Assembly (NCBI GenBank): GCA_964639295.1
Contig: CAZXDT010000003.1
Coordinates: 1,304 to 65,303, forward strand
Length of the DNA: 64,000 nucleotides
Origin: an uncultured Candidatus Saccharibacteria bacterium
GTDB taxonomy: Bacteria > Patescibacteriota > Saccharimonadia > Saccharimonadales > JALRHH01
Reading direction: 5' to 3'
The position numbers and the translations under genes were made by a program. A model generated the notes under the pieces. The model searched no databases, was not told the DNA's origin, and saw only the letters and a program-made list of their open reading frames with translations. The number at the start of each line of letters is the position of its first letter. Positions within the stretch are counted from its first letter, which is position 1. Below are positions 66-55,660 of this stretch, piece after piece.

Positions 66-1385
66 TTAGAAAGTCGTTGTTGCTATGAAGTCTGCTTGTA
101 CAGTATACGCACCTGTTGGGGTCGTAATACCTGACAGAGCTGCAAACTTCAGGATGAGTGCTTCGTCATCAACCACTTTTACTGCTGAACCTGTTGAGGT
201 CGCGATGGTTGTGGTGTTAGCAGGGTTCGCATCCCAGGCGTAACCACCGTTAGTGGTACCACCGACTTGATCACTATCTGTTACGAATGTACCGGTACCG
301 TTACCATCATAGACTCCATCACGGACCATGTTACAGCCCGAACCGCCAGAAGCACATGTGTAAGCACTGGTGCTACCACCGTTGATACCGGCAATAGTCA
401 TACCGAACTTTTCGCCACTAATACCGACCGTGAATGCACCTTGTGAAGCACTTGTATTGAAACACTGGTCAGTGGTACTAGTAGAGACTGGGGAAGCAGT
501 ACAGGTTGCACCGGGCACTTTGAGGGAGCCAGAGCTGGTCTCTGAAAGCGAGTGATATGCAATACTCGCACCGTTAAAGGCGTTTGTACGGATCATCGCT
601 ATCGCGTTGGTGTTACTACCACCGTTAGTTGTACTCACCGGAGACACGTTAGTAGCACTGCTATCGATGTTACCGATATCAACACTAGAGGTACCAGCAA
701 GGGTGACTGCTGCACAGTCTGCACCAGGTGTCGTAGTATCGGTGTTAACTGTTGTTGATGCCACACAGAAGTCTAGACGTTCCTGGACACGTGCGTTGAC
801 GGTCAAGGTCTGTGAAGTACTTTGTGCGAAGACACCTTCCCACTTGAGGGTTGTACCGGTATCTGAGTAGATACGCATACGAGTGTAGTAGCTCTTGTTT
901 GGAGTTGTGTTGTTAACAATATCTGATGCACCTAGAGTGATCTTAAGTGCTGTTTTGCTTGTTGCATCGTCGGCAGTTGTCTTATCAAACTGAATTTGGT
1001 TATTAGAACCACCGCCTAGACCGTTTTCACGAGTAGTTGTCCCACCTGTTGAGGTCCATGGACCAGACAATGTGGCAGTTGGTGAAAGAGCGATTGTTGG
1101 TGTATTAACTGTAGTACAGGTAGTTAGTGGCGTGTCACAGAACTGAATTTCAATATAGTCTGCGTTGGCTGTGTCTGCAGTGGTATTAAATGTCCACTCT
1201 AGCTGGGTTGTTTGGCTAGGACGTGCACTAGTTGATGTTAGGTTGCGAGATAACAGTGTTGGAGCAGCAGACGCTGAACCGGTTATTAAAACCGGGGCTA
1301 CAGCAGCAAACGTCAAGACTAAGGCTGATAGCCCTGCTTGCGCCCTGCGGGAGAGATCCCGGAAACGATCTATATACACACTCAT
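66..1385 (-). CDS. Secreted Thr/Ser-rich surface protein, tandem paralog 1 (439 aa)
   Basis: Long ORF. N-terminal hydrophobic signal-like segment (..ITGSASA/AP). Paralogous to the 1779..3104 product, with an identical central block. AAGGAAA RBS-like sequence upstream. Confidence 0.8.
   Translation of the reverse strand: MSVYIDRFRDLSRRAQAGLSALVLTFAAVAPVLITGSASAAPTLLSRNLTSTSARPSQTTQLEWTFNTTADTANADYIEIQFCDTPLTTCTTVNTPTIALSPTATLSGPWTSTGGTTTRENGLGGGSNNQIQFDKTTADDATSKTALKITLGASDIVNNTTPNKSYYTRMRIYSDTGTTLKWEGVFAQSTSQTLTVNARVQERLDFCVASTTVNTDTTTPGADCAAVTLAGTSSVDIGNIDSSATNVSPVSTTNGGSNTNAIAMIRTNAFNGASIAYHSLSETSSGSLKVPGATCTASPVSTSTTDQCFNTSASQGAFTVGISGEKFGMTIAGINGGSTSAYTCASGGSGCNMVRDGVYDGNGTGTFVTDSDQVGGTTNGGYAWDANPANTTTIATSTGSAVKVVDDEALILKFAALSGITTPTGAYTVQADFIATTTF
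508..845. repeat. 338-bp tract 100% identical to 2221-2558 (inside paralog 1)
   Basis: Manual line-by-line comparison. Identity starts at gcaccgggc and ends at cccactt. Flanking sequence is only about 80% identical. Confidence 0.9.
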
Positions 1386-1515
1386 TTTGTTTTTCCTTTT
1401 ATATACTTTGTTTATTTTTTAGTATTAATGACCTATTTTTACCATAATACTCTGGGTAAACGCAAGCACTTTCACAGCATAGTTTTCCACAGGTAAGCAC
1501 TGAGGTGCACGCACT

Positions 1516-1666
1516 CCACACTTGAGATCATTTGGATTTGTTTGAGCGAAACGTAAAGGAGCCGTACTTAGGTACGGTGACTGTGTATCGTAAGCAAACA
1601 AATTCGAAGGAGCCAAGAGGCTGGCGGGTTACAAGCTCAGCTTGTAAGCAGGCCAGCCGGTGTGGG
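1516..1666 (+). ncRNA. Family-1 structured intergenic element, copy A (candidate ncRNA or REP-like repeat)
   Basis: Closing stem CCACAC/GTGTGG; hairpin GCCGTAC-ttag-GTACGGT; terminal hairpin GGCTGGC..TTACAAGCT-ca-AGCTTGTAA..GCCAGCC. Homologous to copies at 27247, 37809 and 61161. Confidence 0.6.
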
Positions 1667-1680
1667 GTGTGTTTGCAGTA

Positions 1681-1720
1681 AATAAATAAACGCCCTCTGC
1701 AATTATATGCAGGGGCGTTT
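1681..1720 (-). terminator. Rho-independent terminator after paralog 2
   Basis: - strand stem cgcccctgca/tgcagagggcg followed by tttatttatt. Confidence 0.75.
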
Positions 1721-1778
1721 ATTACCCGTTAGCTGAACTATGTCAGGATGGGATTTGATTAACCTAAAACATTCGTAC

Positions 1779-3104
1779 TTAGAAAGTAGCAGTTGCTATA
1801 AAGTCTGCTTGCACAGTGTACGAACCAGTTGGTGTCGTAATACCTGACAGAGCTGCAAACTTTAGAATCAATGCTTCGTCGTCGATAACCTTTACTGCTG
1901 AACCAGTTGAGGTCGCGATGGTTGTCGTGTTAGCAGGATCTGCGTCCCAGGCATAACCACCATTTGTGGTGCCAGCTACTTGGTCGATATCAGTTACGAA
2001 TGTACCTGTACCGTTGCCGTCGTATGCTCCATCACGGACTACATTACAACCTACGCCACCAGCGGCACATGTGTATGCACTGGTGCTACCACCGTTGATG
2101 CCGGCAATGGTCATACCGAATTTCTCACCGGTTGTACCAACTATAAATGCGCCTTGTGATGCACTTGTGTTGAAACATTGGTCAGTTGTACTTGTAGATA
2201 TTGGAGAAGCAGTACAAGTCGCACCGGGCACTTTGAGGGAGCCAGAGCTGGTCTCTGAAAGCGAGTGATATGCAATACTCGCACCGTTAAAGGCGTTTGT
2301 ACGGATCATCGCTATCGCGTTGGTGTTACTACCACCGTTAGTTGTACTCACCGGAGACACGTTAGTAGCACTGCTATCGATGTTACCGATATCAACACTA
2401 GAGGTACCAGCAAGGGTGACTGCTGCACAGTCTGCACCAGGTGTCGTAGTATCGGTGTTAACTGTTGTTGATGCCACACAGAAGTCTAGACGTTCCTGGA
2501 CACGTGCGTTGACGGTCAAGGTCTGTGAAGTACTTTGTGCGAAGACACCTTCCCACTTCAAACTCGTAGCAGGGTTGTCGTCGTAGATACGTACACGTGT
2601 GTAGTACGACTTGTTGACTGCTGCATTGTTAGTAATGTCAGCTGCACCAAGCGTAATTTTTAGTGCCGTTTTACTTGTTGCATCGTCGGCATTGGTCTTA
2701 ACGATATCAATCTGGTTATTTAAACCGTTAGATGATGCCGTACGACCATCCACTCGCGTGGTCGAGGTAACCGCAGTACTCGTCCACGGACCCGACAGTG
2801 TGGCAGTTGGTGCTATAGCAACACTTGGCGTGTTTACGGTTGTACACGTACCAAGCGGGCTGTCACAGAACTGGATTTCGATTGTCTTTGCATTCGCAGT
2901 ATCAGCCGTAGTATTGAACGTCCACTCTAATTGAGTGTTCGTCGAGGGTTGGGCACTCGTAGATGTAAGCATACGAGATGTAATGGTCGGAGCAGCTCCT
3001 GCTGTCGCTGGCAAAAGTGCTGGCAACACTCCAACTGCCCCAAGAATTACAACCTTAGTCCACAACGATACCCTACGCATTTGTAGAGTTATGTTTTGAG
3101 ACAT
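1779..3104 (-). CDS. Secreted Thr/Ser-rich surface protein, tandem paralog 2 (441 aa from the AAGGAG-preceded ATG)
   Basis: Long ORF. The ATG at 3104 is preceded by AAGGAG; the ORF track starts 21 nt upstream at 3125. Has a signal peptide and is a paralog of the 66..1385 product. Confidence 0.8.
   Translation of the reverse strand: MSQNITLQMRRVSLWTKVVILGAVGVLPALLPATAGAAPTITSRMLTSTSAQPSTNTQLEWTFNTTADTANAKTIEIQFCDSPLGTCTTVNTPSVAIAPTATLSGPWTSTAVTSTTRVDGRTASSNGLNNQIDIVKTNADDATSKTALKITLGAADITNNAAVNKSYYTRVRIYDDNPATSLKWEGVFAQSTSQTLTVNARVQERLDFCVASTTVNTDTTTPGADCAAVTLAGTSSVDIGNIDSSATNVSPVSTTNGGSNTNAIAMIRTNAFNGASIAYHSLSETSSGSLKVPGATCTASPISTSTTDQCFNTSASQGAFIVGTTGEKFGMTIAGINGGSTSAYTCAAGGVGCNVVRDGAYDGNGTGTFVTDIDQVAGTTNGGYAWDADPANTTTIATSTGSAVKVIDDEALILKFAALSGITTPTGSYTVQADFIATATF
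2221..2558. repeat. 338-bp tract 100% identical to 508-845 (inside paralog 2)
   Basis: Same manual comparison. The identical spurious + strand ORFs 552..758 and 2265..2471 in the ORF track confirm it. Confidence 0.9.
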
Positions 3105-3379
3105 ATAGTTCTCCTTAATTAACATACGTGGTGCGCACAGAGAGCCTGCATATCTTAGGATCTGGATTTAATAACAAGCAAGAGAAGCCTTCAAGCACAC
3201 GAACTAGACCAATTATATGGATTCGTTTTACTAACGGCGTCGCAAGCTGTCACTTTAGCGTCGCATATGTTTGATTTATATTGATTGTTTTTGTTTTAGG
3301 TTAATATGCACACTATTCATACCATATTATTGTGCATTAGCACAAGCAGTTATCCACAGATACACGTATCCCCTACTAC

Positions 3380-4126
3380 CTAATATGTTCCGCTCACCAC
3401 AACATCATGAACCATAACATACGTCCCGGCTGGCGTAATAGCACTCACATTTGCAATGTAGGAAATAGTGTAGTCAGTTCGTCCAACCGCTTGATTGCCT
3501 GCTGTCGCTGCAGAATGCGCAATAATATCACCCACACCATATTTAAACTGATTCACGGTGTTATAGCCGGCATTTACGGTGCCATCTGCAAAGCTATTAT
3601 CAGGAACATTTAATGAGTTTGCCCCGATATCTGGGCTTGAGTTATCTACTAGATTAATACCAAACTCTTCTGTTCCGGGTATAGGAGCACCCAGACTTGA
3701 TTTAGCAGCAAGCACCCTACCGCCTTCGCTTGTTGGGGGCTGGCTCATAGTCTGTACGACATATGCACTTGAGAGGTACGTTCGTACCCAAAAGGTTCCC
3801 GATCCCGTACCAGTTGTGCTGGTATCCAGATTGCCCAAATCAACTGTTGCGCTATTAATAAATAATTCAAGGAACGGTTCTGATGGAGTAATAAATCCAG
3901 CTTCAGCATCATAATTTGTACTTGATGATCTACCTACACCAAGTGAGCCAACATTACTCTGTGCCTGAAAGTTACTTGATGAAGAGTTACCCCCACCTGT
4001 ACCAAACTGATATTCATTGACCTTGTAGCTATTGGACGAAGACTCTTGTGCAAAGACAGGTACTTGAACAGCGAGTATCAATATCGCTAGTAAAAGTGTG
4101 TGTTTAAGTATCTGTTTCCGCCACAT
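3380..4126 (-). CDS. Secreted protein, unknown function (248 aa)
   Basis: Signal peptide MWRKQILKHTLLLAILILAVQVPVFAQ. The C-terminal strand motif ITPAGTYVMVHDVVVSGTY resembles the C-termini of the two paralogs. Confidence 0.75.
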   Translation of the reverse strand: MWRKQILKHTLLLAILILAVQVPVFAQESSSNSYKVNEYQFGTGGGNSSSSNFQAQSNVGSLGVGRSSSTNYDAEAGFITPSEPFLELFINSATVDLGNLDTSTTGTGSGTFWVRTYLSSAYVVQTMSQPPTSEGGRVLAAKSSLGAPIPGTEEFGINLVDNSSPDIGANSLNVPDNSFADGTVNAGYNTVNQFKYGVGDIIAHSAATAGNQAVGRTDYTISYIANVSAITPAGTYVMVHDVVVSGTY

Positions 4127-4159
4127 AATTTATCACTATTCTAGCATAACCAGTGTTGT

Positions 4160-4858
4160 TTAGCGGGTTTCGAATGTCTCGACGATATTGTCAAAGTCAC
4201 CGGCCGTAGGCTGTGCGGTAAGGTTTCTGTAAGTAATGCGGTATGTTGCAGTACCTCCACCTGGCCTACTAAGTACCATTGCATCAGTCCCGCCTACCAA
4301 TCCCGCAACCGCAACATAGTTTGATGTGTCAGGATTACAAATAAACGTAACTTCTTTGAATGTAAGTACGAGTGTGTGTCGGCTACTGTTTGGCTTAAGC
4401 CCAGTTCTACAGTGATCTGATACGGTGCCTTTGGGTGTCAGTTTACCGCTCTTAGAGGCAGTTACTGGGAGAACGCGGCTCGTCTGAGCAGCATCGAGCG
4501 TAACCGGGGACTCTTGGTTAATATCAATAGTTAGATCCTGTTCAATAAGTGGACCGTTGTATTGCCTGTATACAAAGTGGTTCGAACGACTTTCATTGGC
4601 AATTGCCCGCCATTTCTTTGAAGTTTGAAACTGGAAATAAGGGCTGGACTGTAACTGGGTATCAGCGACGATGAGTGAAGTTACGGCTTTGCTTTCATTA
4701 GAAGCTTCTTCGGATTTATTGTTATTGGCGATAATGTCATACGCAAAGAAACCCCCGCCAACTAACAAGCCAAAAATAATCAATGCCCAGACATAGCGTA
4801 GTTTGCGCAAGAACCGCTTGCGGCTATGGAAGCCTTGTTCTCGGTAGTAGCTCGACAT
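4160..4858 (-). CDS. N-terminally membrane-anchored protein, unknown function
   Basis: Start chosen at ATG 4858, preceded by GAGAGGGAAG; the ORF track extends to 4930. One TM segment (VWALIIFGLLVGGGFFAY). Confidence 0.7.
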   Translation of the reverse strand: MSSYYREQGFHSRKRFLRKLRYVWALIIFGLLVGGGFFAYDIIANNNKSEEASNESKAVTSLIVADTQLQSSPYFQFQTSKKWRAIANESRSNHFVYRQYNGPLIEQDLTIDINQESPVTLDAAQTSRVLPVTASKSGKLTPKGTVSDHCRTGLKPNSSRHTLVLTFKEVTFICNPDTSNYVAVAGLVGGTDAMVLSRPGGGTATYRITYRNLTAQPTAGDFDNIVETFETR

Positions 4859-5155
4859 CTGTTCTTCCCTCTCGGGACCCCCATATGGATTTACTGCCAT
4901 TATTGCACACAACACTAAAAACACAACCACTTACGAGGAGGGGTTGTTAAAGTGTGTACGCAACGCTGAACTGCAAAACAAGCTGAGAACGGTCAGTCAG
5001 AAGTTCAAAAATGTGCTTTACAGTGTCCAGTAATGTTTGTGTTGTTTGTACCAAATGTACCGTAGCATATTTTTACTACAAGCACAAGCGTGACTGATTG
5101 CGGTTATGTTTTTGACTGCAAACATAGTATTATTGATGCAAGAAGACCAGAGGCC

Positions 5156-6154
5156 ATGGATAATAAATCAGAAGATACAAATCAGCCAGAAAAACCTGAG
5201 AACACTGAGCCAGTGTCCGGTTCAAGCAACGCTGAAGGCGAAAGCCTTGAAGGCAGTACTGATGCAACTGCGTCTTCTGATGTAAAAGTAAGCGCGCCAA
5301 AACAAAGCATTGGTAAGCGTATTCAGGGACTCATAACAGGCTTGAACATCTACCTTATACTGTTTATTTTCATCGTGGTACTTGCCGCAGGTATCGTTAT
5401 GATTGGCATTCAGAAAAACAAAAAAGCTGCCACGCCAACTACTGTTAACACCCAGACGCTATCCGCTGACGAACTCAAGAAAATCGCCGAAAGCGAACAA
5501 AAAGTTGGCGATCCTAAGTCAACGCTATCTATCGAATCTAATGCTATCTTCAGCGGTAAAGTACTGATCCGTGACAGTTTAGACGTTGCGGGAACTATCA
5601 AGGTGGGTGGGGCATTGAGTCTACCAGGCATTAGCGTGTCCGGGGAGAGTAGCTTCGACCAGATCAAAGCTAACAACCTAACTATTACCGGTAACACGGC
5701 TATCCAAGGTCAATTAAGTATCCAAAAGGGTATAACCAGCAGTGGCGGTGCAAGCTTTGGTGGACCTATCTCTGCCCCTATCTTGACGGTTCAGAGCCTA
5801 CAAATCAGTGGTGATTTACAGATCACTCGACATATTGACGCAGGTGGTGGCACACCAGGAAAGGTAGATGGCAGTTCGTTAGGATCTGGCGGAACCGTAT
5901 CTATTAGTGGTAGCGACACAGCTGGGACAATAACCATCAATACCGGTGGTGGCCCGGGTGCAGGTTGTTTCGTGACCGTTAACTTCACGCAGAAATTCAG
6001 TGGCAATCCACACGTTGTTGTATCCCCTGTTGGTTCAGGTGCGGCGTCACTCCAGTACTACATAAACCGAAACAGCAGTAACTTTAGCCTCTGCACCGCC
6101 AATGCCCCAGGTGGTGGCCAAAGCTTCTCATTCGACTACATAGCCATCGACTAA
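5156..6154 (+). CDS. Membrane-anchored protein with Gly-rich beta-helix-like repeats
   Basis: ORF. ATG 5156 is preceded by AGAGG; the ORF track starts at GTG 5090. One TM segment, then repeated G-x-L/I-x-V/I-x-G motifs. Confidence 0.7.
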   Translation: MDNKSEDTNQPEKPENTEPVSGSSNAEGESLEGSTDATASSDVKVSAPKQSIGKRIQGLITGLNIYLILFIFIVVLAAGIVMIGIQKNKKAATPTTVNTQTLSADELKKIAESEQKVGDPKSTLSIESNAIFSGKVLIRDSLDVAGTIKVGGALSLPGISVSGESSFDQIKANNLTITGNTAIQGQLSIQKGITSSGGASFGGPISAPILTVQSLQISGDLQITRHIDAGGGTPGKVDGSSLGSGGTVSISGSDTAGTITINTGGGPGAGCFVTVNFTQKFSGNPHVVVSPVGSGAASLQYYINRNSSNFSLCTANAPGGGQSFSFDYIAID

Positions 6155-6177
6155 TCTAACACCTCACAAAGGGTTCT

Positions 6178-6293
6178 GAGCTTGAGTGTAGCTTGGGATG
6201 CTCATCGAGGCTTGACCTTGAGGCGTACTAAAAGTACGGCGAAAGGTCAGACGTAAGATAAGCGCCCAAGATGCGCCAAGGTCTGAAGCCGCC
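6178..6293 (+). ncRNA. Family-1 element, divergent/truncated copy E
   Basis: CTTGAG..TTGGGAT head. Stem GACCTT/AAGGTC encloses hairpin CGTAC-taaaa-GTACG. Then ACGTAAG and GCGC-ccaagat-GCGC. The long 3' hairpin is missing. Confidence 0.4.
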
Positions 6294-6294
6294 T

Positions 6295-6618
6295 TTAGAT
6301 ATCGAGAAAAACCACGACTTCGTCAGCTTTTACATGCATAATCCCACGCGCAATCTTAATATGCTCCTCATTATCATCCGTACGCACAATAATATCGCCT
6401 GAGTTTAGCAATGTCATGAAGTTGTGGTGCTTGGGCAATATGTCGAAAGTACCGGTATCGTTCACACCGGAAATACTGTTTGCCTCACCGTCAAAATACA
6501 CTTTAAATGGTGCATAGACCTTGACGTGCATCGTCTTGCCGTCAACTCGCGATTCAGGAATTGCGGCATTGGTAGCGGTATCTTTATGCTCGACAGGTTT
6601 GTTGTCATCTTCTGGCAT
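6295..6618 (-). CDS. atpC: F1 ATP synthase epsilon subunit
   Basis: Last gene of the atp operon. Epsilon-like beta-sandwich sequence (ILPKHHNFMTLL...). The true start may be the internal MHVKVY. Confidence 0.8.
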   Translation of the reverse strand: MPEDDNKPVEHKDTATNAAIPESRVDGKTMHVKVYAPFKVYFDGEANSISGVNDTGTFDILPKHHNFMTLLNSGDIIVRTDDNEEHIKIARGIMHVKADEVVVFLDI

Positions 6619-36100: not shown

Positions 36101-36182
36101 TACCCTCTAGTGTAACTGGTTATGGTTATATTGAAAACGGTAATCGAGGTTAGTTTCGATTATAAGACTATATTGCGGCGGA

Positions 36183-36803
36183 TTATTTTATACTGACTGT
36201 TTCTTTATCACCCTGCACAACACTAGCACTCTTGAGGCTACCTGATTCATAACTAATTGAAGCAATGATGCTACTGTCGCTTATTGAAGCGCCGTCTTTA
36301 TAGACACAAACCTCATTGGCACCAATAGGAGTACACGTGGCCTCTATGCCGCCAAGTGCCTTTTCTGCATCAGCCTTTGACATGCCCTTTTTCAATGAAA
36401 TGGTTTTTGAGTCTGCGTTTTCCTTGAGAACTGATCCTGAACCCGTATTACCTGTACTGTTATCTGATTTACTCGACTTCATAAGTACAACAGCAAGAAT
36501 CACAACGACTATCACAATCACAACGGCAACAATAATCAATATGAGCTTAGTAGGTATCTTACTTTGGCTTGGCATCGATGCAGGTTGCATGGCGGGCATC
36601 GCATACTGCTGTGGGGGCTGTTGCATTGGCTGTGGAGCAGCTTGCTGTGGGGGCCCATACACCGCAGGCTGTTGTACGCCTGGCTGTGCGTACACTGCAG
36701 GCTGCTGCGGCTGAGTCGTTTGATCAACGTACTGCTGAGGCTGAACCTGTGGCTCCTGTGGTGGGTTTATATTTGGCTGCTGAGGGTTCTCGTTTGGGTT
36801 CAT
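36183..36803 (-). CDS. Pro/Gln-rich membrane-anchored protein
   Basis: ORF; AAGGAG RBS; low-complexity PQ N-terminus; one TM; small C-terminal domain. Confidence 0.65.
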   Translation of the reverse strand: MNPNENPQQPNINPPQEPQVQPQQYVDQTTQPQQPAVYAQPGVQQPAVYGPPQQAAPQPMQQPPQQYAMPAMQPASMPSQSKIPTKLILIIVAVVIVIVVVILAVVLMKSSKSDNSTGNTGSGSVLKENADSKTISLKKGMSKADAEKALGGIEATCTPIGANEVCVYKDGASISDSSIIASISYESGSLKSASVVQGDKETVSIK

Positions 36804-36869: not shown

Positions 36870-36885
36870 ATCTCGAGGGGAGTCG
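36870..36885 (-). repeat. 16-nt copy of the tRNA-Glu 3' end (third copy)
   Basis: atctcgaggggagtcg is identical to 37402-37417 and 37585-37600. It lies 2 nt beyond the stop codon of 36888..37358. Confidence 0.85.
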
Positions 36886-36887
36886 TA

Positions 36888-37358
36888 TTATCTTTGGCCG
36901 CGAATGCGTTCAATAATGCTTGTTGTCGAGACGTCACCTTCCGTACGTTCAACAACTTGCAGATGTGATGGATCCATAATGTTCCAGAAACGTGGGTCCT
37001 CACCATCAGTCGCATATAGATCTGGCTGTAGCTGAGCCACGATTTCTGCATGCACTGGGTCGATTTCGTCTGGGGGGCTTGTAGCCGGGTCAACGAATAC
37101 ATAATCCACAATTTTAAGCGCATCAAGCATCTCTGCCCTTTCGCCTTCAGGAATAATTGGCCTATCATCACCCTTACGAGCCTTAACCCTATCATCACCG
37201 CTCATCATGACAACCATAATGTCACCAAGAGCCTTCACTGTATCCAAGTAGTGCTTGTGGCCAACATGAAGCAAATCAAAGGTACCACTTGTGAGGACTA
37301 TTTTCTCGTCTTTGTGTTGGTTACGAACTTCTGCTAGGTTTTCAAGTCGTATAATCAT
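36888..37358 (-). CDS. Cytidylyltransferase-family nucleotidyltransferase (HxGH type)
   Basis: SGTFDLLHVGHKHYL motif. Start set at ATG 37358 (6 nt after the -10 hexamer); the ORF track starts at 37364. Confidence 0.8.
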   Translation of the reverse strand: MIIRLENLAEVRNQHKDEKIVLTSGTFDLLHVGHKHYLDTVKALGDIMVVMMSGDDRVKARKGDDRPIIPEGERAEMLDALKIVDYVFVDPATSPPDEIDPVHAEIVAQLQPDLYATDGEDPRFWNIMDPSHLQVVERTEGDVSTTSIIERIRGQR

Positions 37359-37364
37359 TGACAT

Positions 37365-37393
37365 ACATTAGCATAAGTATGATGAGTTGTCAA
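37365..37393 (-). promoter_or_regulatory. Sigma70-like promoter, leaderless layout
   Basis: TTGACA-17-TAATGT, then atgtca, then ATG 37358. Confidence 0.6.
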
Positions 37394-37400
37394 TGTAGAG

Positions 37401-37534
37401 GATCTCGAGGGGAGTCGAGTCACCTTCGGCGACCCCGCGACTTCTACCATGAAAGCACAGCTTTCAGGTGAAGATCACCTTGCGAATTGCCACTGGCAAT
37501 TCTCACCCTGTTACCGGTAACAGGAGTTCGAGTC
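37401..37534 (-). other. E1: tRNA-Glu 3'-half-derived composite module with an 87-nt structured insert
   Basis: Four parts: an inverted partial tRNA copy; a direct copy (palindrome CCTGTTACCGGTAACAGG, 37507-37524); the insert at 37419-37505; and an exact 18-nt tRNA 3' end at 37401-37418. Confidence 0.7.
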
Positions 37535-37540
37535 ACAAAT

Positions 37541-37570
37541 ACCAAAACAAAAACCCCAGACTAGCTGGGG
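37541..37570 (-). terminator. tRNA-Glu terminator
   Basis: CCCCAG-ctagt-CTGGGG followed by TTTTTGTTTT on the - strand. Confidence 0.8.
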
Positions 37571-37579
37571 CTCTTGTTT

Positions 37580-37654
37580 TGGTGATCTCGAGGGGAGTCG
37601 AACCCCTGTTACCAGGATGAAAACCTGGTGTCCTAACCGTTAGACGACGAGACC
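37580..37654 (-). tRNA. tRNA-Glu(UUC), CCA encoded
   Basis: Manual cloverleaf: GGTCTCG acceptor stem, anticodon loop TTTTCAT, T-arm GGGGTTCGACTCCCC. Confidence 0.95.
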
Positions 37655-37720
37655 GTACTGTGGCAAACATAATTCTGCCAATTGCAACCAAAAAATCATA
37701 ACATAACAGAGGCCAATTGA

Positions 37721-37752
37721 AAACCCCTCCCTAGTGAAAGAGAGGGGTTTTC
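37721..37752. terminator. Bidirectional hairpin terminator
   Basis: AAACCCCTC...GAGGGGTTT flanked by A and T runs. Confidence 0.6.
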
Positions 37753-37808
37753 TGGCCTATAGGCCGGAGCGGTCAGTCAAACTACTCGTTTGGCTGGGAC
37801 CGACATAT

Positions 37809-37959
37809 CCATACTTGAGACAATTTGGATGCGACTCTGCGGAGTACAAGGAGCCGTACTAAAGTACGGTGACTGCACCCCGCAAAAAGAGGCAAGTTCA
37901 AATGGTCCAAGAAGCCAGCGGGTCGCGAGCTCCGCTCGTGAGCAGGCTGGCTGGTATGG
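37809..37959 (+). ncRNA. Family-1 structured intergenic element, copy C (most divergent full copy)
   Basis: Closing stem CCATAC/GTATGG; stem GCGGAGTAC/GCACCCCGC; hairpin GCCGTAC-taaa-GTACGGT; terminal hairpin AGCCAGC..TCGCGAGC-tcc-GCTCGTGA..GCTGGCT. Confidence 0.6.
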
Positions 37960-37968
37960 AATGTCGGG

Positions 37969-39788: not shown

Positions 39789-40904
39789 TCAACAGGTGGG
39801 AATGACTCCACAGGGACTCGGCGTAGCCGATGGCGACGGTGAAGTCGTCTGTCCACTGTCAGAGTCGTCATCCGGAACGGTGGGAGTTGGAGCTCCTCCG
39901 TCACCAGAACCACCGTCGGGGTCACCCGTGGGACGACTCGTCGGACGAGGCGTGCCGCTGGGATTCGAAGGACCCTGAGGGTTCTCACCGACCGGCTGCT
40001 TCGCAGGACTTCCGTTTCCACCAGCACCACCAGGGTCGTTCGTACCCTTGGGCTTGACGCATCGGTCCTCATACGGAACGTACGGGATGCACTTCGGCTT
40101 CGGACACGTCCCCTGCTTCTCGCAGTTGGTGGTCGGGTGAGGCAGATCGAACTGCGGGTTGGTGCAGGCTCCGCGCAAGGCGAAGACCGAAGTCACCTTC
40201 CCACACTCGATCTGACCCGGAGGCACGAAGATCATGGTGATCGTTCCCGCCTTGTCCACCTTGGTGCTGCCAGCCATCTTGATGCCGTTGTGGTAGTAAG
40301 TGTTGCCACCCCAAGACGTCATCTCGTTGAGCTGTGCCGCAACCCAGTTGCTCGGATCGAGCAGCTGAGCCTTGGTGACCGGAGCACACCCATCCTTGGT
40401 TGCGTACTTCGCAGCCTTGATCGCGTCCTTAGCCTGGGGGGTACCCGAGCCGATGAAAGCAACCGCTTCTGCGGGAGTCGAAACCATCTCGCCGAAGACA
40501 CCGTGACCGGGGTCAGCAGTGTTCTCGGTGATGAGAGCAGGGTCGGTGACGATCTTGTCATCCTTGAAACCCTGCTGACGCAGAGCCTTGCGGACGACGT
40601 CGACAACGACCTCGTGCTTCTTGTCGTCAGCCTTCGGAGTAGGGCAGGCGTTCAGGGCGTCGATGGTGGCCTGGGCCGCCTCGATGTCCTTCTTGGCCTG
40701 CTTCTCGTCGGGCGTGCCCTTGACGTCCTTCAGCTTGCTGTCAGCCTTCTCCTTGGCGGAGGTGGCGTCCTTCAGCTGGACAGCCTGCTTGGAGCAGTCC
40801 ACCTTGGACGAAACGGGCTTGGTGCCACTACCGCAAGCGGTGAGCGTGACACCCATCAGAACAGCCACCAGAAGGAGGCCGACGTTCTTGATGTTGAACT
40901 TCAC
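39789..40904 (-). CDS. Lipoprotein with a Pro/Gly/Ser-rich C-terminus, foreign (high G+C) composition
   Basis: GTG start preceded by GGAAGGGG. Signal plus lipobox MKFNIKNVGLLLVAVLMGVTLTAC. G/C-rich third codon positions. Confidence 0.8.
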   Translation of the reverse strand: MKFNIKNVGLLLVAVLMGVTLTACGSGTKPVSSKVDCSKQAVQLKDATSAKEKADSKLKDVKGTPDEKQAKKDIEAAQATIDALNACPTPKADDKKHEVVVDVVRKALRQQGFKDDKIVTDPALITENTADPGHGVFGEMVSTPAEAVAFIGSGTPQAKDAIKAAKYATKDGCAPVTKAQLLDPSNWVAAQLNEMTSWGGNTYYHNGIKMAGSTKVDKAGTITMIFVPPGQIECGKVTSVFALRGACTNPQFDLPHPTTNCEKQGTCPKPKCIPYVPYEDRCVKPKGTNDPGGAGGNGSPAKQPVGENPQGPSNPSGTPRPTSRPTGDPDGGSGDGGAPTPTVPDDDSDSGQTTSPSPSATPSPCGVIPTC

Positions 40905-40926
40905 TTGAATCACCCCTTCCGGTGAT

Positions 40927-41313
40927 TTAGCTCCGCGACGGCTTGTCGAGGAACGGGATGTTGTCGAACAGGATCAGCGCGAGGTACACGAGGATCGCAG
41001 CGGCGACACCGACCAGAACCCAGAGGTCCTGCATTTCGATGCCATCGAGAACCTTGTTGCCCCAGACGACCACGACTGCAGTCAGAACTGCAGAAGCGAT
41101 GATCTTGAACTTGGAGGCGTCTCCCTTCAGCAGCCAGATGATGGCGCCGGCGGCGACTACGACACATACGGCCCACAGCAGACTCCCGAAGGAATCGCCG
41201 AAGCTGAACTTGTCCTTGTGCCACTCGTAGTAGTGAACGGCGTAGGCGGTGCCCACGATGCCCAGTACGGCGGTGATGAATCGACGGATGTCGACACGGT
41301 CGAGCTTGAACAT
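40927..41313 (-). CDS. Small 4-TM membrane protein, foreign (high G+C) composition
   Basis: ORF with an AAAGGGGA RBS and four hydrophobic segments. The overlapping ORFs in other frames are typical high-GC artefacts. Confidence 0.75.
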   Translation of the reverse strand: MFKLDRVDIRRFITAVLGIVGTAYAVHYYEWHKDKFSFGDSFGSLLWAVCVVVAAGAIIWLLKGDASKFKIIASAVLTAVVVVWGNKVLDGIEMQDLWVLVGVAAAILVYLALILFDNIPFLDKPSRS

Positions 41314-41390
41314 GAGATTTCCCCTTTCCTAGGGAGGTAGAACCAGTTCGAGAGCTCCATGCGGAACTCTTATAGCTGTAGTCTCCCTAG

Positions 41391-41443
41391 TAGGGACAGC
41401 ATGATTGCAGTCAAACTCGTTAACTGCGAACATGCTGTCCCTA
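41391..41443. repeat. 13-bp perfect inverted repeat hairpin
   Basis: tagggacagcatg / catgctgtcccta, with a 27-nt loop that itself pairs (TTGCAGT/ACTGCGA). Confidence 0.85.
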
Positions 41444-41530
41444 AGGAAATATCGAAACAATAGATTGGTTACAGTGTGTATTTGTTCTGCATGGGAGCTT
41501 CTAGAGGTAAACCTCAATAGACGCTGCAAC

Positions 41531-41598
41531 CAGTGCAGACCGTCTAATACTAGCGTGACAAGAAGAACTAACCACCTAATACTACTCGGTCTGCACTG
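41531..41598. repeat. 12-bp perfect inverted repeat
   Basis: cagtgcagaccg / cggtctgcactg, with a 44-nt spacer. Confidence 0.85.
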
Positions 41599-41619
41599 TT
41601 TACTTTCCTTAGCAGAACT

Positions 41620-41639
41620 CCGGTATCTGTTGATACCGG
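41620..41639. repeat. 8-bp stem hairpin abutting the right inverted repeat
   Basis: CCGGTATC-tgtt-GATACCGG. Confidence 0.8.
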
Positions 41640-41640
41640 T

Positions 41641-41666
41641 TATATACTCTGTAATGATTTGACTTG
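41641..41666 (-). repeat. Right 26-bp inverted repeat
   Basis: Its reverse complement caagtcaaatcattacagagtatata matches 39496-39521. Confidence 0.85.
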
Positions 41667-41806
41667 TTAACGTGCCCGCTGTCTATGAATTCCTGGCCTC
41701 TTAGAAGCAGCAAAAGCAGAGCCATTGCTGGTCTGCTATACTATTCCACCTCTGTAAAAGTCCAGTTACGGGTTAAAACCTCACACCCATAAACAAGGAT
41801 GCTCTA

Positions 41807-41835
41807 AATATACCACAAAATACCTTTTATGTCAA
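41807..41835 (-). promoter_or_regulatory. Strong sigma70-like promoter facing the high-G+C unit
   Basis: TTGACA-17-TATATT on the - strand. Confidence 0.55.
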
Positions 41836-41884
41836 TTACTTTCAACACCTTTACGGTAAAACACAAGCGTTTTGCAACCCCTGT

Positions 41885-43318
41885 TTAGGCCTTCTTGTCT
41901 GCCAAATGATCAGGTACTTTGAGTTTCTGCTTACTAAATGTGAATCCAAAGGTGCTTCCCTTGTTCTCTACGCTCTTAAACACGATTGCGCCACCCTGGG
42001 CGATAATCACTTTCTTAGCCATAAACAGTCCCAGCCCAGTACCATCCGGACGAGCCTTCTGAGCATTCTTAGCCCTATAGAACTTATTAAACAGATGGTG
42101 TTGTTCTGCAGGTGGTATACCGATACCATTATCGTTAACTGTAAACTCTACACTATCCTTTGTCTGCTTGAGCTTAATCTCTATCGCCCCGCCGGCTGGG
42201 GTGTAGTAAATAGCATTGTCAGCAAAGTTCATAATAACTTGCCGTATCTTAGTCTCATCGATCATGAGATTTGGGAAATCTTCTGGCTTTTTGTACTGAA
42301 GAGTTAAATTACGCCCAGCCGCAGCAACCTTGAGTTGATCTACTTCACTCTCAATAACGTCCGCTAGGTTAGTAGGCTTAGCCTCAATAACAAACTTACC
42401 GGTCCTAAGCCTAGACAGGTTCAACAGGTCGGCAATGAGATAAACCATACGCTGGCTACTCGCAAAAGACTGTTCCAATAACTTACGCTGCATTGGTTGA
42501 AGTTCTCCTGCATCTCCCTCTAGGACCATACTGACATAACCCTTAACAGAAGTCAGTGGTGTGCGTAACTGGTGTGATGCCATGCTAATAAACTCATCCT
42601 TGGTTTCATCCAAGGCCTTTAACTTCTCGTTGGTTTTCTGTAGCTGACGAAGGACTTGCTGGTTTTCTTCAAACAGTAGTTTGTTGTCAAGTGCGATCCC
42701 CACTGCTTCACTCAGACGCTCAAGTAACATTTTATCTTTCTCGGAAATTGCTTCTTGATCCTGCGTAAATCCTATTACCATAAGGCCTACTAGCCGATCT
42801 CTAGACAAAAGCTTAACGACGACGACTGACTTGATTGGTAATGCCGCCCTAAGTAATGCAACTTTTTGTTTCTTGTCGCCAAGAATAGCTGCAAGATGCT
42901 CATTTGTTATGTCCCGAACACTCCGTATTATGCTGCGCTCAGGTGTTGCTATCCACTCACTGTGATCATCAAGCCCAATTTTGTAGTGACTGATGTCCGG
43001 TACGTTTTGAAATGAGCTGGCAACGCCATATAAGGCTAAATAGTCTTTATGCGGCGGATTGGGCAAGATTGCCACCAATGGATACGAAGAATGGGTAACG
43101 ATGGCTTCAGCAACTTTTTGGCACAGTATCTCCAGCTCTTCGTGAGACTCAAGCACGAGGCTATCAATAGTACGGAGAAGAGAAAGAGCCTGATTCGAAT
43201 CAGCCAACTCAAGGTTTCTCTTATACATCTGCTGTGATATTTCAGCAAGATCCAACTCCAGCTGCTTTTTCTTGCTGGCGGTGAATACTTTCTTAAGACG
43301 TGTTTTTTGCTCTTCCAC
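41885..43318 (-). CDS. Cytoplasmic sensor histidine kinase
   Basis: H-box SHQLRTPLTSV; HATPase N, G1 and G2 boxes (DNGIGI, GTGLGL); no TM segment. Confidence 0.9.
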   Translation of the reverse strand: MEEQKTRLKKVFTASKKKQLELDLAEISQQMYKRNLELADSNQALSLLRTIDSLVLESHEELEILCQKVAEAIVTHSSYPLVAILPNPPHKDYLALYGVASSFQNVPDISHYKIGLDDHSEWIATPERSIIRSVRDITNEHLAAILGDKKQKVALLRAALPIKSVVVVKLLSRDRLVGLMVIGFTQDQEAISEKDKMLLERLSEAVGIALDNKLLFEENQQVLRQLQKTNEKLKALDETKDEFISMASHQLRTPLTSVKGYVSMVLEGDAGELQPMQRKLLEQSFASSQRMVYLIADLLNLSRLRTGKFVIEAKPTNLADVIESEVDQLKVAAAGRNLTLQYKKPEDFPNLMIDETKIRQVIMNFADNAIYYTPAGGAIEIKLKQTKDSVEFTVNDNGIGIPPAEQHHLFNKFYRAKNAQKARPDGTGLGLFMAKKVIIAQGGAIVFKSVENKGSTFGFTFSKQKLKVPDHLADKKA

Positions 43319-51419: not shown

Positions 51420-51496
51420 GGGCCAGTAGCTCAGCTGGTTAGAGCACCTGCCTCTTAAGCAGGGTGTCGAGGGTTCGAGTCCCTCCTGGCCCTCCA
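51420..51496 (+). tRNA. tRNA-Lys(CUU), CCA encoded
   Basis: Manual cloverleaf: GGGCCAG acceptor stem, anticodon loop CTCTTAA, T-arm GAGGGTTCGAGTCCCTC. Confidence 0.95.
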
Positions 51497-51500
51497 TAAT

Positions 51501-51529
51501 AAAACACCCTCCTCGCCGAGGGTGTTTTA
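51501..51529 (+). terminator. tRNA-Lys terminator (T1)
   Basis: ACACCCT-cctcgccg-AGGGTGT followed by TTTT. Confidence 0.8.
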
Positions 51530-51544
51530 TTATGCTGAGCTATG

Positions 51545-51688
51545 TGGACTCGAATTCTCGACACGCCAAAGGGTGTCGAGGTGAGAACTGCCTGTGGCAG
51601 TTCGCAAGGGAGCCAACTCTTGCAAACTGGTTTGCAAAGATGTTGCGACGGGTCGGCTGAAAGTCGGTCGAGTCCCTCCTGGCCCTCC
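51545..51688 (+). other. E2: tRNA-Lys 3'-half-derived composite module with an 86-nt structured insert
   Basis: Four parts: an inverted partial copy at 51545-51563; a direct 12-nt copy at 51569-51580; the insert at 51581-51666; and an exact 22-nt tRNA 3' end including CCA at 51667-51688. Confidence 0.7.
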
Positions 51689-51852
51689 AGATGGCTTGCG
51701 CAAACTCAATGTTCCTCCCGGCTCTCCAAGCATAAGCATCATAAAAGGCTTCTCGCTAGTAGGGGTAGCCGAGGGCTACAGAGTAATTTTACCGGGTTGT
51801 TCTAATACAACGCCCTTCATTAGAGAAGTCGAATCCTTGGTGTTTTTAACTA

Positions 51853-51881
51853 TTGACAATTTAACTTGCTTATGTTAATAT
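51853..51881 (+). promoter_or_regulatory. Sigma70-like promoter, leaderless layout
   Basis: TTGACA-17-TAATAT, then 6 nt, then ATG 51888. Confidence 0.65.
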
Positions 51882-51887
51882 GTTCTT

Positions 51888-52415
51888 ATGAATCAAGCAA
51901 ACTTTCCAGGCCCCAACCCTAGTGAACATCCAGAAGTTGCCGATAATCCAGAAGCTATGCAGCCCGCCACGGAAGCGAGCAAGCAAGCGTTGCTCGACCT
52001 GATAGCAACTAACCCAGCTGACGACCGAACGCTTGCCTTTGCGGAAGAAGCAAAAGGCAGAATACAAACTACAAACTTTCCAGAAGATGTTTTTCCCCGT
52101 CTAGCCAGTATTCGTCGTGTTGAATGGCCAGATAATACATATGGGAAACAGCTCGTAACTAACTATTCTATTGTTGCATCTCCGGATGGTCCGCAAATAG
52201 AAAAACACGTGCACACATTTGACCCAAGCACAGAACTGGCAAATATTGATACAAACGCTAATGATGGTTCCTCACTCCTTACTAGTGCTCTGATAAGGAT
52301 GAGAGCACAGCGAGCATCAAGTACCGATGAAGATGAATTAGGTTTAAGTTTTGTTTCTGAAGCAGAGACAAAAGCCCTGATAGCCTTACTTGAAGAAGCA
52401 CACCCTCTTAGCTAA
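51888..52415 (+). CDS. Hypothetical acidic protein (175 aa)
   Basis: ORF directly downstream of the leaderless-type promoter. No motif recognised. Confidence 0.7.
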   Translation: MNQANFPGPNPSEHPEVADNPEAMQPATEASKQALLDLIATNPADDRTLAFAEEAKGRIQTTNFPEDVFPRLASIRRVEWPDNTYGKQLVTNYSIVASPDGPQIEKHVHTFDPSTELANIDTNANDGSSLLTSALIRMRAQRASSTDEDELGLSFVSEAETKALIALLEEAHPLS

Positions 52416-55404: not shown

Positions 55405-55432
55405 AAACGACCAGCTTACGCTGGTCGTTTTT
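55405..55432 (+). terminator. Hairpin terminator (bidirectional form)
   Basis: AAACGACCAGC-ttac-GCTGGTCGTTT followed by TT. Confidence 0.75.
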
Positions 55433-55523
55433 GGTACACCGGGCTGGGTAGTGCACATCTTTAGCCATGCTCGGTGCGAGCACCTGCGCGTGGCTTTGAT
55501 GACCGAACCATGGATCGAGTCCA
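55432..55523 (-). other. E3: degenerate second copy of the tRNA-Arg 3' part
   Basis: Contains GGACTCGA. CAGGTGCTCGCA resembles tRNA CAGGTGTCGCA. It ends CCGGTGTACCA, versus CCGGGTGTACCA in the tRNA. Confidence 0.45.
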
Positions 55524-55545
55524 GGCTCGATAAATCGAGTTGAAA

Positions 55546-55573
55546 TTAAAACCGCCCCCTTAGGAAGCGGCTT
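55546..55573 (-). terminator. tRNA-Arg terminator
   Basis: GCCGC...GCGGT stem followed by TTTTAATTT on the - strand. Confidence 0.6.
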
Positions 55574-55583
55574 AAATTTCACC

Positions 55584-55660
55584 TGGTACACCCGGCAAGA
55601 TTCGAACTTGCGACACCTGGTTCCGAAGACCAGTGCTCTAATCCACTGAGCTACGGGTGC
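55584..55660 (-). tRNA. tRNA-Arg(UCG), CCA encoded
   Basis: Manual cloverleaf: GCACCCG acceptor stem, anticodon loop CTTCGGA, T-arm GCAAGTTCGAATCTTGC. Confidence 0.95.

Follow-up and report, generated by a model that had tools for sequence, protein, structure and literature searches.

How does a conserved chromosomal gene come to stand between two copies of the 3′ end of a tRNA gene? The question is raised by a 64-kb (64,000 nt) stretch of DNA from an uncultured Saccharibacteria bacterium, referred to here in its whole length as the window. In it, a nucleotidyltransferase gene is bracketed by two partial copies of the nearby tRNA-Glu gene (termed tails or tail copies), and a structured, gene-less element, E1, lies between the tRNA and the first of these copies. 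Saccharibacteria and other Patescibacteria have tiny, streamlined genomes in which gene gain and shuffling are poorly understood. Here, we describe the repeats and the gene, E1 and its counterparts at other tRNA genes, and the orthologous loci of relatives. The explanation that we favour, tentatively and with a probability of roughly 45%, is that T-loop recombination by recombinases encoded elsewhere repeatedly inserted small segments at tRNA 3′ ends, and that the gene is native to the site and became bracketed.

Tail copies of tRNA-Glu and the bracketed gene

The repeat was first noticed as the 16-mer ATCTCGAGGGGAGTCG, of which the 64-kb window contains exactly three copies, at 36870–36885, 37402–37417 and 37585–37600, where none is expected by chance. 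An exact search confirmed the three direct-orientation copies of the preliminary description, no further copy with up to two mismatches was present in the window, and a chance origin is ruled out by 0 matches in 100 shuffles. All three copies lie on the minus strand, on which they read CGACTCCCCTCGAGAT and correspond to positions 55–70 of tRNA-Glu(UUC), that is, the 3′ half of the T loop (from C56), the 3′ strand of the T stem and the 3′ strand of the acceptor stem. The intact tRNA-Glu(UUC), with an encoded CCA, occupies 37580–37654 on the minus strand (ARAGORN; Rfam tRNA model, 63.4 bits; fragment map). In the local-alignment fragment map, the master copy of the repeat is tRNA-Glu positions 54–71 (37584–37601, minus strand). 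Copy 2 (37401–37418, minus strand) matches the same positions at 18/18 nt and is followed by CTCTACA and then by the −35 box of the gene, while copy 3 (36870–36885, minus strand) matches positions 55–70 at 16/16 nt, a score at the gene end that was reached by 0/500 shuffles. It lies where it had been placed initially, 2 nt past the stop codon (TAA at 36888–36890). The discriminator base and CCA are absent from both copy 2 and copy 3.

The 5′ boundary of these direct-orientation tail repeats lies in the T loop, a position that classically marks site-specific recombination at tRNA genes. Tail copies begin at T-loop positions 54–56 in copies 2 and 3, in an element at tRNA-Lys described below, and in the related loci L008 and L011 (about 14 distinct orthologous loci were compared; L-numbers label the compared contigs or loci). 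An intact tRNA with a displaced 3′ fragment in direct orientation, the Islander-type criterion, is found at tRNA-Glu. Upstream of this tRNA, 314 nt are non-coding (37655–37968, minus strand) and contain a terminator (37745–37724), a promoter-like site that is partly conserved with L043 (37723–37695) and a GC-rich hairpin region near 37900–37960.

Between copies 2 and 3 there is a single unit, as first described, consisting only of a promoter and an open reading frame (ORF) of 156 amino acids (aa). The ORF (36888–37358, minus strand) encodes a protein of the adenylyl/cytidylyltransferase family (PF01467 at 1.5e-15, with HVGH as its HxGH motif) that is closest to the NCBIfam model rfaE_dom_II, yet scores under the cut-off of that model. 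Homologues number 546; the best 120 of these 546, the protein's own 100% entry aside, share 60–78% identity with it, and the named entries among these 120 are annotated as Saccharibacteria. The promoter (37365–37393, minus strand) comprises TTGACA at 37393–37388, a 17-nt spacer and a TG-extended TAATGT at 37370–37365, and the ATG at 37358, 7 nt past the −10 box with 6 nt between, predicts a leaderless mRNA. The −10 box agrees with TATAAT at only 3/6 positions and is missed by a strict consensus scan. The unit TTGACA, 17 nt, TAATGT-like box, 6 nt, ATG is nevertheless kept in about 14 orthologous loci, nearly all of those examined. Because the geometry of −35 box, −10 box and ATG is conserved across these loci, the promoter and the leaderless start are supported; together with the family and motif assignments, this upholds the initial view of a TTGACA-17-TAATGT promoter driving a leaderless HxGH gene.

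The surroundings of the gene are conserved in part. The window, L002, the contig of P0002, L043 and L048 share the order nucleotidyltransferase gene–PK (pyruvate kinase)–PGK–TIM, with a variable interval between the gene and PK that contains nothing, a 206-aa gene, two ORFs or a DUF1801 gene (not related to DUF1045). In eight lineages, tRNA-Glu (UUC or CUC) lies no more than 2 kb upstream of the gene. Judged by gene order, tRNA-Glu has long had the nucleotidyltransferase gene as a conserved neighbour, and so, in the subclade of the window, has PK. Because the gene is widely conserved, has its own promoter and is linked to PK–PGK–TIM, it is neither a recently captured nor a promoterless cassette.

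E1 and its counterparts at tRNA-Lys and tRNA-Arg

E1 (37419–37579, minus strand) is strongly structured, with a fold z-score of −7 against shuffles. Read in the orientation of the tRNA, E1 is made up of a terminator, an inverted copy of tRNA positions 42–60, a direct copy of positions 42–51 and a module, and is followed by the direct tail of positions 54–71. The terminator is a long hairpin that begins in CCA, CCAAAACAAGAGCCCCAG...CTGGGGTTTTTGTTTTGG (37542–37582, minus strand; fold, terminator scan and coordinates), and a hairpin of the same type follows tRNA-Lys, tRNA-Arg and the tRNA-Glu of relatives. The left arm of E1 (37516–37534, minus strand) is the inverted copy of positions 42–60 at 17/19 nt, covers the variable region and T arm of tRNA-Glu and includes the motif GACTCGAA; aligned locally to the tRNA it scores 14, where the null 95% value is 11. 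In the predicted fold it pairs with the direct copy of positions 42–51, GGTAACAGGG (37506–37515, minus strand; fragment map and coordinates), which represents the variable region and the 5′ strand of the T stem. The remaining 87 nt (37419–37505, minus strand) form a module, here termed type A, that scores 118.7 bits (E = 2.6e-29) with covariance model R1.

The type-A module is predicted to fold into three adjacent hairpins with 36 pairs. Across six sequences, 94.9% of cells are paired compared with 28–44% in slid controls, 22/36 pairs show changes on both sides, and the observed values are reached by 0/500 shuffles. Two G·U pairs are invariant or nearly so, which argues for a structure selected on the tRNA-sense strand, as RNA or as single-stranded DNA. 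Neither E1 nor any of the modules matches an Rfam family at gathering or permissive thresholds, the weak matches of E1 being at chance level; a scan of the window and 13 related loci returned only tRNA and tmRNA above threshold, and the group I intron model gave no match to the module at E ≤ 10. In the literature, the only related report found concerns group I introns in the anticodon loops of Patescibacteria tRNAs, a different thing. An origin of E1 from a phage or plasmid was considered and rejected, since scans of IMG/VR with the motif and the tail sequence and blastn searches of phage and plasmid collections were empty. With strong covariation and no Rfam family, the module is a new candidate mobile or functional RNA or single-stranded DNA element. 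A Logan contig of the same species (L001, positions 1–40) is without 14 nt of the module, GGTAGAAGTCGCGG (window 37434–37447); the gap is flanked by GGT microhomology, lies at the contig start and may be an assembly artefact.

The architecture of E1 recurs: behind each of the three tRNAs of the window come a terminator, then a structured element, then a copy of that tRNA's own tail. The array of tRNA-Lys(CUU) occupies 51420–51728 on the plus strand (fold z = −6.7; module 107 bits). It comprises the tRNA (51420–51496), a terminator (51495–51534), an inverted copy of tRNA positions 45–63 (51546–51564), a direct copy of positions 42–53 (51570–51581), a type-A module homologous to that of E1 (51582–51667) and a tail copy of positions 56–77 that includes CCA and matches at 22/22 nt (51668–51689); a second, decayed tail (15/18 nt, 51711–51728) lies 22 nt further on. 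The inverted-repeat-like pairing of this element, GGACTCGA with TCGAGTCC, is made of tRNA sequence, and no target duplication was seen. The array of tRNA-Arg(UCG) occupies 55405–55660 on the minus strand (fold z = −6.7) and comprises the tRNA (55584–55660), a terminator (55541–55581), a structured element with a different module, type B (55445–55540), a tail copy with CCA, GCCCGGTGTACCA, at 12/13 nt (55432–55444) and a second terminator (55405–55432). The type-B core, GCCACGCRCAG-hairpin-CGAGCATGG, is common to the Arg element and the Glu elements of L005 and L043, with compensatory changes. Because the Lys and Arg arrays share this architecture, the elements represent a tRNA-trailing family and are not confined to the nucleotidyltransferase gene. 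Such tail-bearing elements at tRNA genes are thus a wider, undescribed pattern; it is these elements that are new here, tRNA-targeted integration itself being known. Downstream of the Lys element, a 175-aa gene likewise has a leaderless arrangement, TTGACA-17-TAATAT-6-ATG (51853–51890, plus strand), and leaderless mRNAs may, judging from such promoters, be common in the source genome.

Could the copies simply be errors of replication, produced by slippage or template switching at the T-arm hairpin with no dedicated recombination system? The T arm is a natural hairpin, and template switching typically yields inverted and direct partial copies (fold-back palindromes), such as occur in the Glu and Lys elements and in L038. 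Chance, however, is excluded by the shuffles, and slippage explains neither the homologous 87-nt module at two different tRNAs, nor perfect 139-nt repeats around a gene in L046, nor the same gene-end junction in two distant genomes (both described below). We therefore regard this explanation as very improbable.

The recurrence and the folds also bear on a second alternative, in which the repeats are not recombination sites at all and the elements serve the host as RNA genes or as cis-acting parts of the tRNA unit, acting in processing, termination or insulation or as tRNA-mimicking small RNAs; the tail copy and the anti-T-arm would then be kept for mutual pairing or tRNA mimicry. The very stable predicted folds (z = −6.7 to −7), the strong compensatory covariation with near-invariant G·U pairs that exist only on the tRNA-sense strand, the presence of an element at every tRNA in this window of a streamlined genome, and the complementarity of the left arm to the variable and T-arm sequence of the local tRNA in both the Glu and Lys elements would all be accounted for. 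A host function is nonetheless quite unlikely. No promoter is recognisable in the elements, which come after strong terminators; the module types at the orthologous site differ between lineages and are not homologous; and the side of the tRNA on which the element lies flips, being upstream in L011 and L038 and downstream in the window. Moreover, the tRNA-Glu of L007 has no trailing element, copy 3 is unstructured, there is no consistent acceptor-stem partner, and the same-species contig L001 may lack part of the module.

The distribution of the module suggests a third alternative. A metagenome scan with a strict module motif matched three contigs, one of them unrelated, and the module was studied in four organisms. 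Eight copies were found in the window and two other organisms, each in or adjoining tRNA-derived sequence, and in every T-loop case the module replaces G53–U54. In L038 a nearly full-length pseudo-tRNA-Glu surrounds it, immediately upstream of the true tRNA-Glu. In L011, three tandem module copies and two pseudo-tRNA-Glu copies are packed into about 460 nt upstream of tRNA-Glu(CUC) (3270–3730; also L037, 2010–2475), with one module at the T loop and two diverged modules at the D-loop position, a pile-up that is unusual for a streamlined genome. All carriers are truncated, with the 5′ half gone (the Glu and Lys elements of the window) or the acceptor 3′ strand gone (L011 and L038). The module itself might then be the mobile agent, an 87-nt element resembling an intron or a miniature inverted-repeat transposable element (MITE) that enters the T and D loops of tRNAs, kills the copy that it enters and survives in redundant or fragmentary tRNAs, so that the tail repeats would be the 3′ halves of dead copies. 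Its recurrence at one and the same T-loop position, in three genomes within sequence derived from tRNA-Glu and also within sequence derived from tRNA-Lys, its diverged form at the D-loop position in L011 and L037, and the almost complete pseudo-tRNA around it in L038 are in keeping with this view, which would resemble the transposition of introns among archaeal tRNA genes. No intact tRNA carrying the module was seen, however, a target-site duplication and a common flanking target are both absent, no Rfam model matches (that of group I introns included), and copy 3, which has no adjoining module, is left unexplained. On balance, the module is an improbable primary agent of the rearrangements.

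The locus in related genomes

Variation around the gene is concentrated in its flanks. A tRNA-tail fragment, usually extending through CCA, lies directly upstream of the gene promoter in L005, L008, L040, L043, L044/L009 and L046, with or without an intact tRNA nearby; these fragments are most simply read as a sign that only a few bases formerly separated the end of the native tRNA-Glu from the −35 box. The interval between tRNA-Glu and the gene ranges from 0.2 to 1.7 kb in relatives, and the element between tRNA and tail differs by lineage. In the window, about 160 nt with a type-A module fill the slot, compared with about 150 nt and a type-B module in L005 and L043; the slot contains three elements of a further type, C, and a gene in L046, a 170-aa ORF in L044, 1.7 kb in L006 and an element of yet another type in L011. 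Among the loci compared, of which those with DNA across the whole locus do not exceed 80% identity, E1 types thus differ or are absent, and the nucleotidyltransferase gene is always present.

In L046, a direct repeat of 139 nt, 100% identical between its two copies (1308–1446 and 2175–2313), brackets one SKI-domain gene. The repeat contains a tRNA end, a terminator, a type-C element and a tail with CCA, and sits between tRNA-Glu and the nucleotidyltransferase gene; a third element after the repeats is 73–96% similar. Because the repeats are identical, this insertion appears to be recent. In L011, whose nucleotidyltransferase is 62% identical to that of the window, the gene runs into a tail of its own tRNA-Glu(CUC), TCGATTCtCCGTGAGATCACC, at 21/22 nt and with the stop codon inside it, and the gene downstream of this tail is a conserved DUF1045 gene.

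The tail at the gene end is not a feature of all relatives. Of the 11 loci for which a reference tail was available, the window and L011 alone reach significance, with marginal values in L040 (p = 0.03) and L044 (p = 0.08), and the repeat is absent from the gene end in most relatives. Nor is the junction simply ancestral by way of a shared downstream neighbour, since the gene that follows in the window and the DUF1045 gene of L011 are unrelated. In L044, a gene for an IS200/IS605-type Y1 transposase with hairpin-rich ends (3196–3633, minus strand) lies directly downstream of the nucleotidyltransferase gene and adjoins a possible decayed tail copy, so that the site after the gene would be an insertion point there too.

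Compared with L002, the closest relative with DNA (77% protein identity), the window contains an insertion that starts at copy 3, ends at a conserved spacer before PK and carries a 206-aa ORF; the gene–PK spacer of L002 aligns only with window sequence just upstream of PK. The ORF (36183–36803, minus strand) encodes a Pro/Gln-rich protein with one membrane-spanning stretch (predicted to be membrane-anchored), and a search for its homologues among 5.8 billion proteins returned only itself. The lineage-specific part of the locus is this orphan gene downstream of copy 3, not the nucleotidyltransferase gene. At the distal edge of the orphan segment, just before the spacer conserved with L002, sequence inspection revealed a T-loop-like palindrome, TAATCGA-AACTAACC-TCGATTA(CC) (36139–36162, minus strand), which may, weakly, be a remnant of a pseudo-attachment (pseudo-att) site.

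Several accounts of copy 3 itself were tried and rejected. RNA structure around it does not exceed that of shuffles (z = −0.39), which speaks against a tRNA-like or terminator structure at the mRNA end; a 7-nt complement to it in the coding region is not conserved in L011; and no significant remnant of a module 3′ end, as expected of a partial duplicate of the copy 2 region, precedes it in the window or L011 (p = 0.15–0.76). Because it is unstructured and has no module remnant alongside, copy 3 is best read as a recombination joint at the end of a conserved gene. As to which side of the joint arrived, the right-hand, orphan segment is favoured as incoming by the linkage of the gene to PK and by a downstream gene that is an orphan, while the left-hand segment, E1 and the gene, is favoured by the joint of L011 with its own tail.

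The latter view corresponds to an alternative in which the promoter and the nucleotidyltransferase gene are, or formerly were, a single-gene cassette mobilisable in cis, with the tRNA-Glu tail as its site. A circle excised between tails would re-enter the T loop of tRNA-Glu and give the array tRNA, E1, tail, gene, tail, orphan gene; the expected circle junction would read GGCCAAAGATAATA, CGACTCCCCTCGAGATC and CTCTACATTGACA (gene end, tail and CTCTACATTGACA), and the expected empty site CGCCGAAGGTGAC, TCGACTCCCCTCGAGAT and GTGGTTAGGTTC (module, tail and GTGGTTAGG). The bracket of L011 uses the tail of its own tRNA-Glu(CUC) and not the version of the window, its junction, too, is no more than a few codons away from where the gene naturally ends, and the genes that follow are not related to each other. 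Depending on the genome, the gene is linked to tRNA-Glu(UUC) or tRNA-Glu(CUC), with widely varying outer flanks; in L046 a single-gene unit occupies the same slot, bracketed by perfect tail-bearing repeats; and copies 2 and 3 span the same block (54/55–70/71), as a defined core site would. Against these points stand the wide distribution of the gene and its PK–PGK–TIM linkage in at least five lineages of the window's subclade, with or without repeats. L002 has an identical promoter–gene unit with no tRNA and a tail on neither side, no integrase was found in the window, and neither a circular junction nor an empty site has been observed so far. We consider a mobile cassette unlikely. Compared for presence, absence or replacement of the cassette, as first suggested, relatives vary in the flanks, with the bracket of L011 and the repeats of L046 among the variants; the gene itself is always present and mostly lacks the repeats.

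Proposed recombination at tRNA 3′ ends

If recombination made these joints, where is the recombinase? Integrase, resolvase, transposase and reverse transcriptase domains were absent from window ORFs of at least 110 aa (Pfam, E ≤ 1e-4 to 1e-2), although several window ORFs have no Pfam match at all and a very divergent enzyme is possible. The DNA bracketed by tails contains no integrase and holds only E1 and the 156-aa transferase gene. A serine recombinase at tRNA-Glu was seen only in an unrelated metagenome contig, L038, where an ORF for a 591-aa large serine recombinase with Resolvase and Recombinase domains (4667–6476) runs convergently to tRNA-Glu(UUC) and stops within the tRNA's 3′ end. 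It is followed by Replic_Relax-like and AAA/DUF4143 genes, the far end of the element lying beyond the contig, and to judge from its gene content this region is probably an integrated mobile element. No homologue of this recombinase is present in the window or in any compared locus, and a scan of IMG/VR with the protein gave no match.

In the favoured explanation, the three repeats would be the functional 3′ part of tRNA-Glu and two duplicates produced by recombination, with the junction between positions 53 and 56; elements that integrate into tRNA genes classically cross over in the T loop. The nucleotidyltransferase gene with its leaderless promoter would be the ancestral downstream neighbour of tRNA-Glu, and small elements would have entered repeatedly between the two. 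Each incoming element would bring a new tRNA 3′ end and terminator, leaving the old tail with the downstream DNA, so that copy 2 would be the displaced native tail and hence stand directly before the promoter. E1 would be a gene-less miniature insertion of about 160 nt, complete and not the remnant of a deletion, that was moved by a site-specific recombinase encoded elsewhere, and its structured modules would be kept by selection on the element itself. Copy 3, where the gene borders on the orphan segment, would be a second tail copy, produced by T-loop recombination of this kind. The direction and order of these events are inferred, as are the action of a site-specific recombinase and the completeness of E1.

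Several observations weigh against this explanation. Copies 2 and 3 are without the discriminator and CCA expected on a displaced native tRNA end, and both are perfect over the same 54/55–70/71 block, as would be expected of a core site that is maintained rather than of a passive scar. The classical island model would put all DNA from the tRNA to the last tail inside the island and make the conserved gene its cargo, and simple integration leaves the inverted T-arm copy at the left end of each element unexplained. The module structure is under purifying selection across genomes whose nucleotidyltransferases are only 62% identical, unexpected for dead scars, and a clear tail at the gene end exists in only two of about 14 loci. 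The possible module deletion in the same-species contig, located at the contig end and perhaps artefactual, belongs here too, as do the absence of a recombinase from the 64-kb window and the failure to find a full-length parent element of E1.

Known systems share some of these properties. tRNA- and tmRNA-integrated islands and prophages include tandem arrays with several tail repeats, as outlined for the ssrA-linked islands of Dehalococcoides (PMC3146451), and are collected in the Islander database, as outlined in PMC4383910. The Glu locus resembles them in its intact tRNA followed by direct 3′ repeats, in the T-loop junction, in the restored tRNA end and terminator, in content that varies among relatives at one tRNA and in the recombinase-bearing element at the tRNA-Glu of L038. 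It differs in that its units are 160 and 516 nt rather than kilobases, none with an integrase, its bracketed gene is chromosomal and conserved, and its tail copies stop before the discriminator and CCA. The first proposal of tandem insertions at one att site therefore stands in part: the T-loop tail repeats and the insertion hot spot speak for it, the conserved gene and the lack of a recombinase in the window against it.

Smaller att-bracketed units are also known. In streptococci, cis-mobilisable elements (CIMEs) are remnants that lack an integrase but keep flanking att sites, and an incoming integrative element mobilises them by accretion. The units described here are similarly small, att-bracketed, without a recombinase of their own and in tandem by the 3′ end of a target gene, and the perfect repeats of L046 around one gene are compatible with a CIME or tandem accretion. 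Unlike CIMEs, they have no helper in the window, and the unit is a single housekeeping-type gene. Integron cassettes are usually promoterless and expressed from Pc, and their attC site is an imperfect palindrome at the cassette 3′ end that folds single-stranded. The topology is shared, an anchor site being followed by single-gene units separated by a repeated site. The likeness suggested in the preliminary description goes no further: there is no IntI in the window and no attI, the repeat is a 16–18-nt direct tRNA copy and not a folded attC (copy 3 is not attC-like), and the bracketed gene has its own conserved promoter. Since integrase, attC-like site and promoterless cassette are all lacking, 'integron-like' describes the topology only.

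The module, for its part, invites comparison with inserts in RNA genes. Group I introns occur in Patescibacteria tRNAs at anticodon-loop positions (PMC13011429). Like these, the modules are related inserts at precise loop positions of different tRNAs, in a phylum that tolerates tRNA introns; unlike them, the module is about 87 nt long, lies in the T or D loop, has no Rfam group I match and is carried by truncated pseudo-tRNAs beside an intact gene, not by complete tRNAs with a removable insert. Non-canonical tRNA introns of Archaea transpose between tRNA genes, and Rickettsia palindromic elements are MITE-like palindromes that insert into RNA genes. The modules resemble the latter in being short, structured and gene-less, with several diverged copies inside RNA-gene sequence, but differ from MITEs in that no target duplication was found and the terminal inverted repeat is built from the sequence of the local tRNA itself.

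A broader and doubtful extension is that Saccharibacteria harbour an undescribed family of gene-less structured elements of about 90–160 nt, with several module types, located at tRNA genes in the T- or D-loop position of pseudo-tRNA copies. The tail that each carries would be a portable recombination site and, together with a recombinase encoded elsewhere, would make an integron-like gene-shuffling array of the 3′ flank of a tRNA. If so, the nucleotidyltransferase gene, the orphan gene and the SKI-domain gene of L046 would have been inserted, bracketed and moved between tails, and tails and miniature elements acting as recombination sites would offer a compact route of gene flux requiring one recombinase per cell or visiting element. 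For genome annotation, tail copies and pseudo-tRNAs can mislead the prediction of tRNAs, islands and attachment sites in Saccharibacteria genomes.

Elsewhere in the window, five consecutive ORFs of 248–448 aa at 66–6154 have no Pfam match at E ≤ 1e-4. A 374-aa lipoprotein-like ORF (39789–40913) and a 128-aa membrane ORF, both without a Pfam match, belong to a GC-rich region, with a GC content of 0.54 at 40001–42000 compared with 0.43–0.48 elsewhere.

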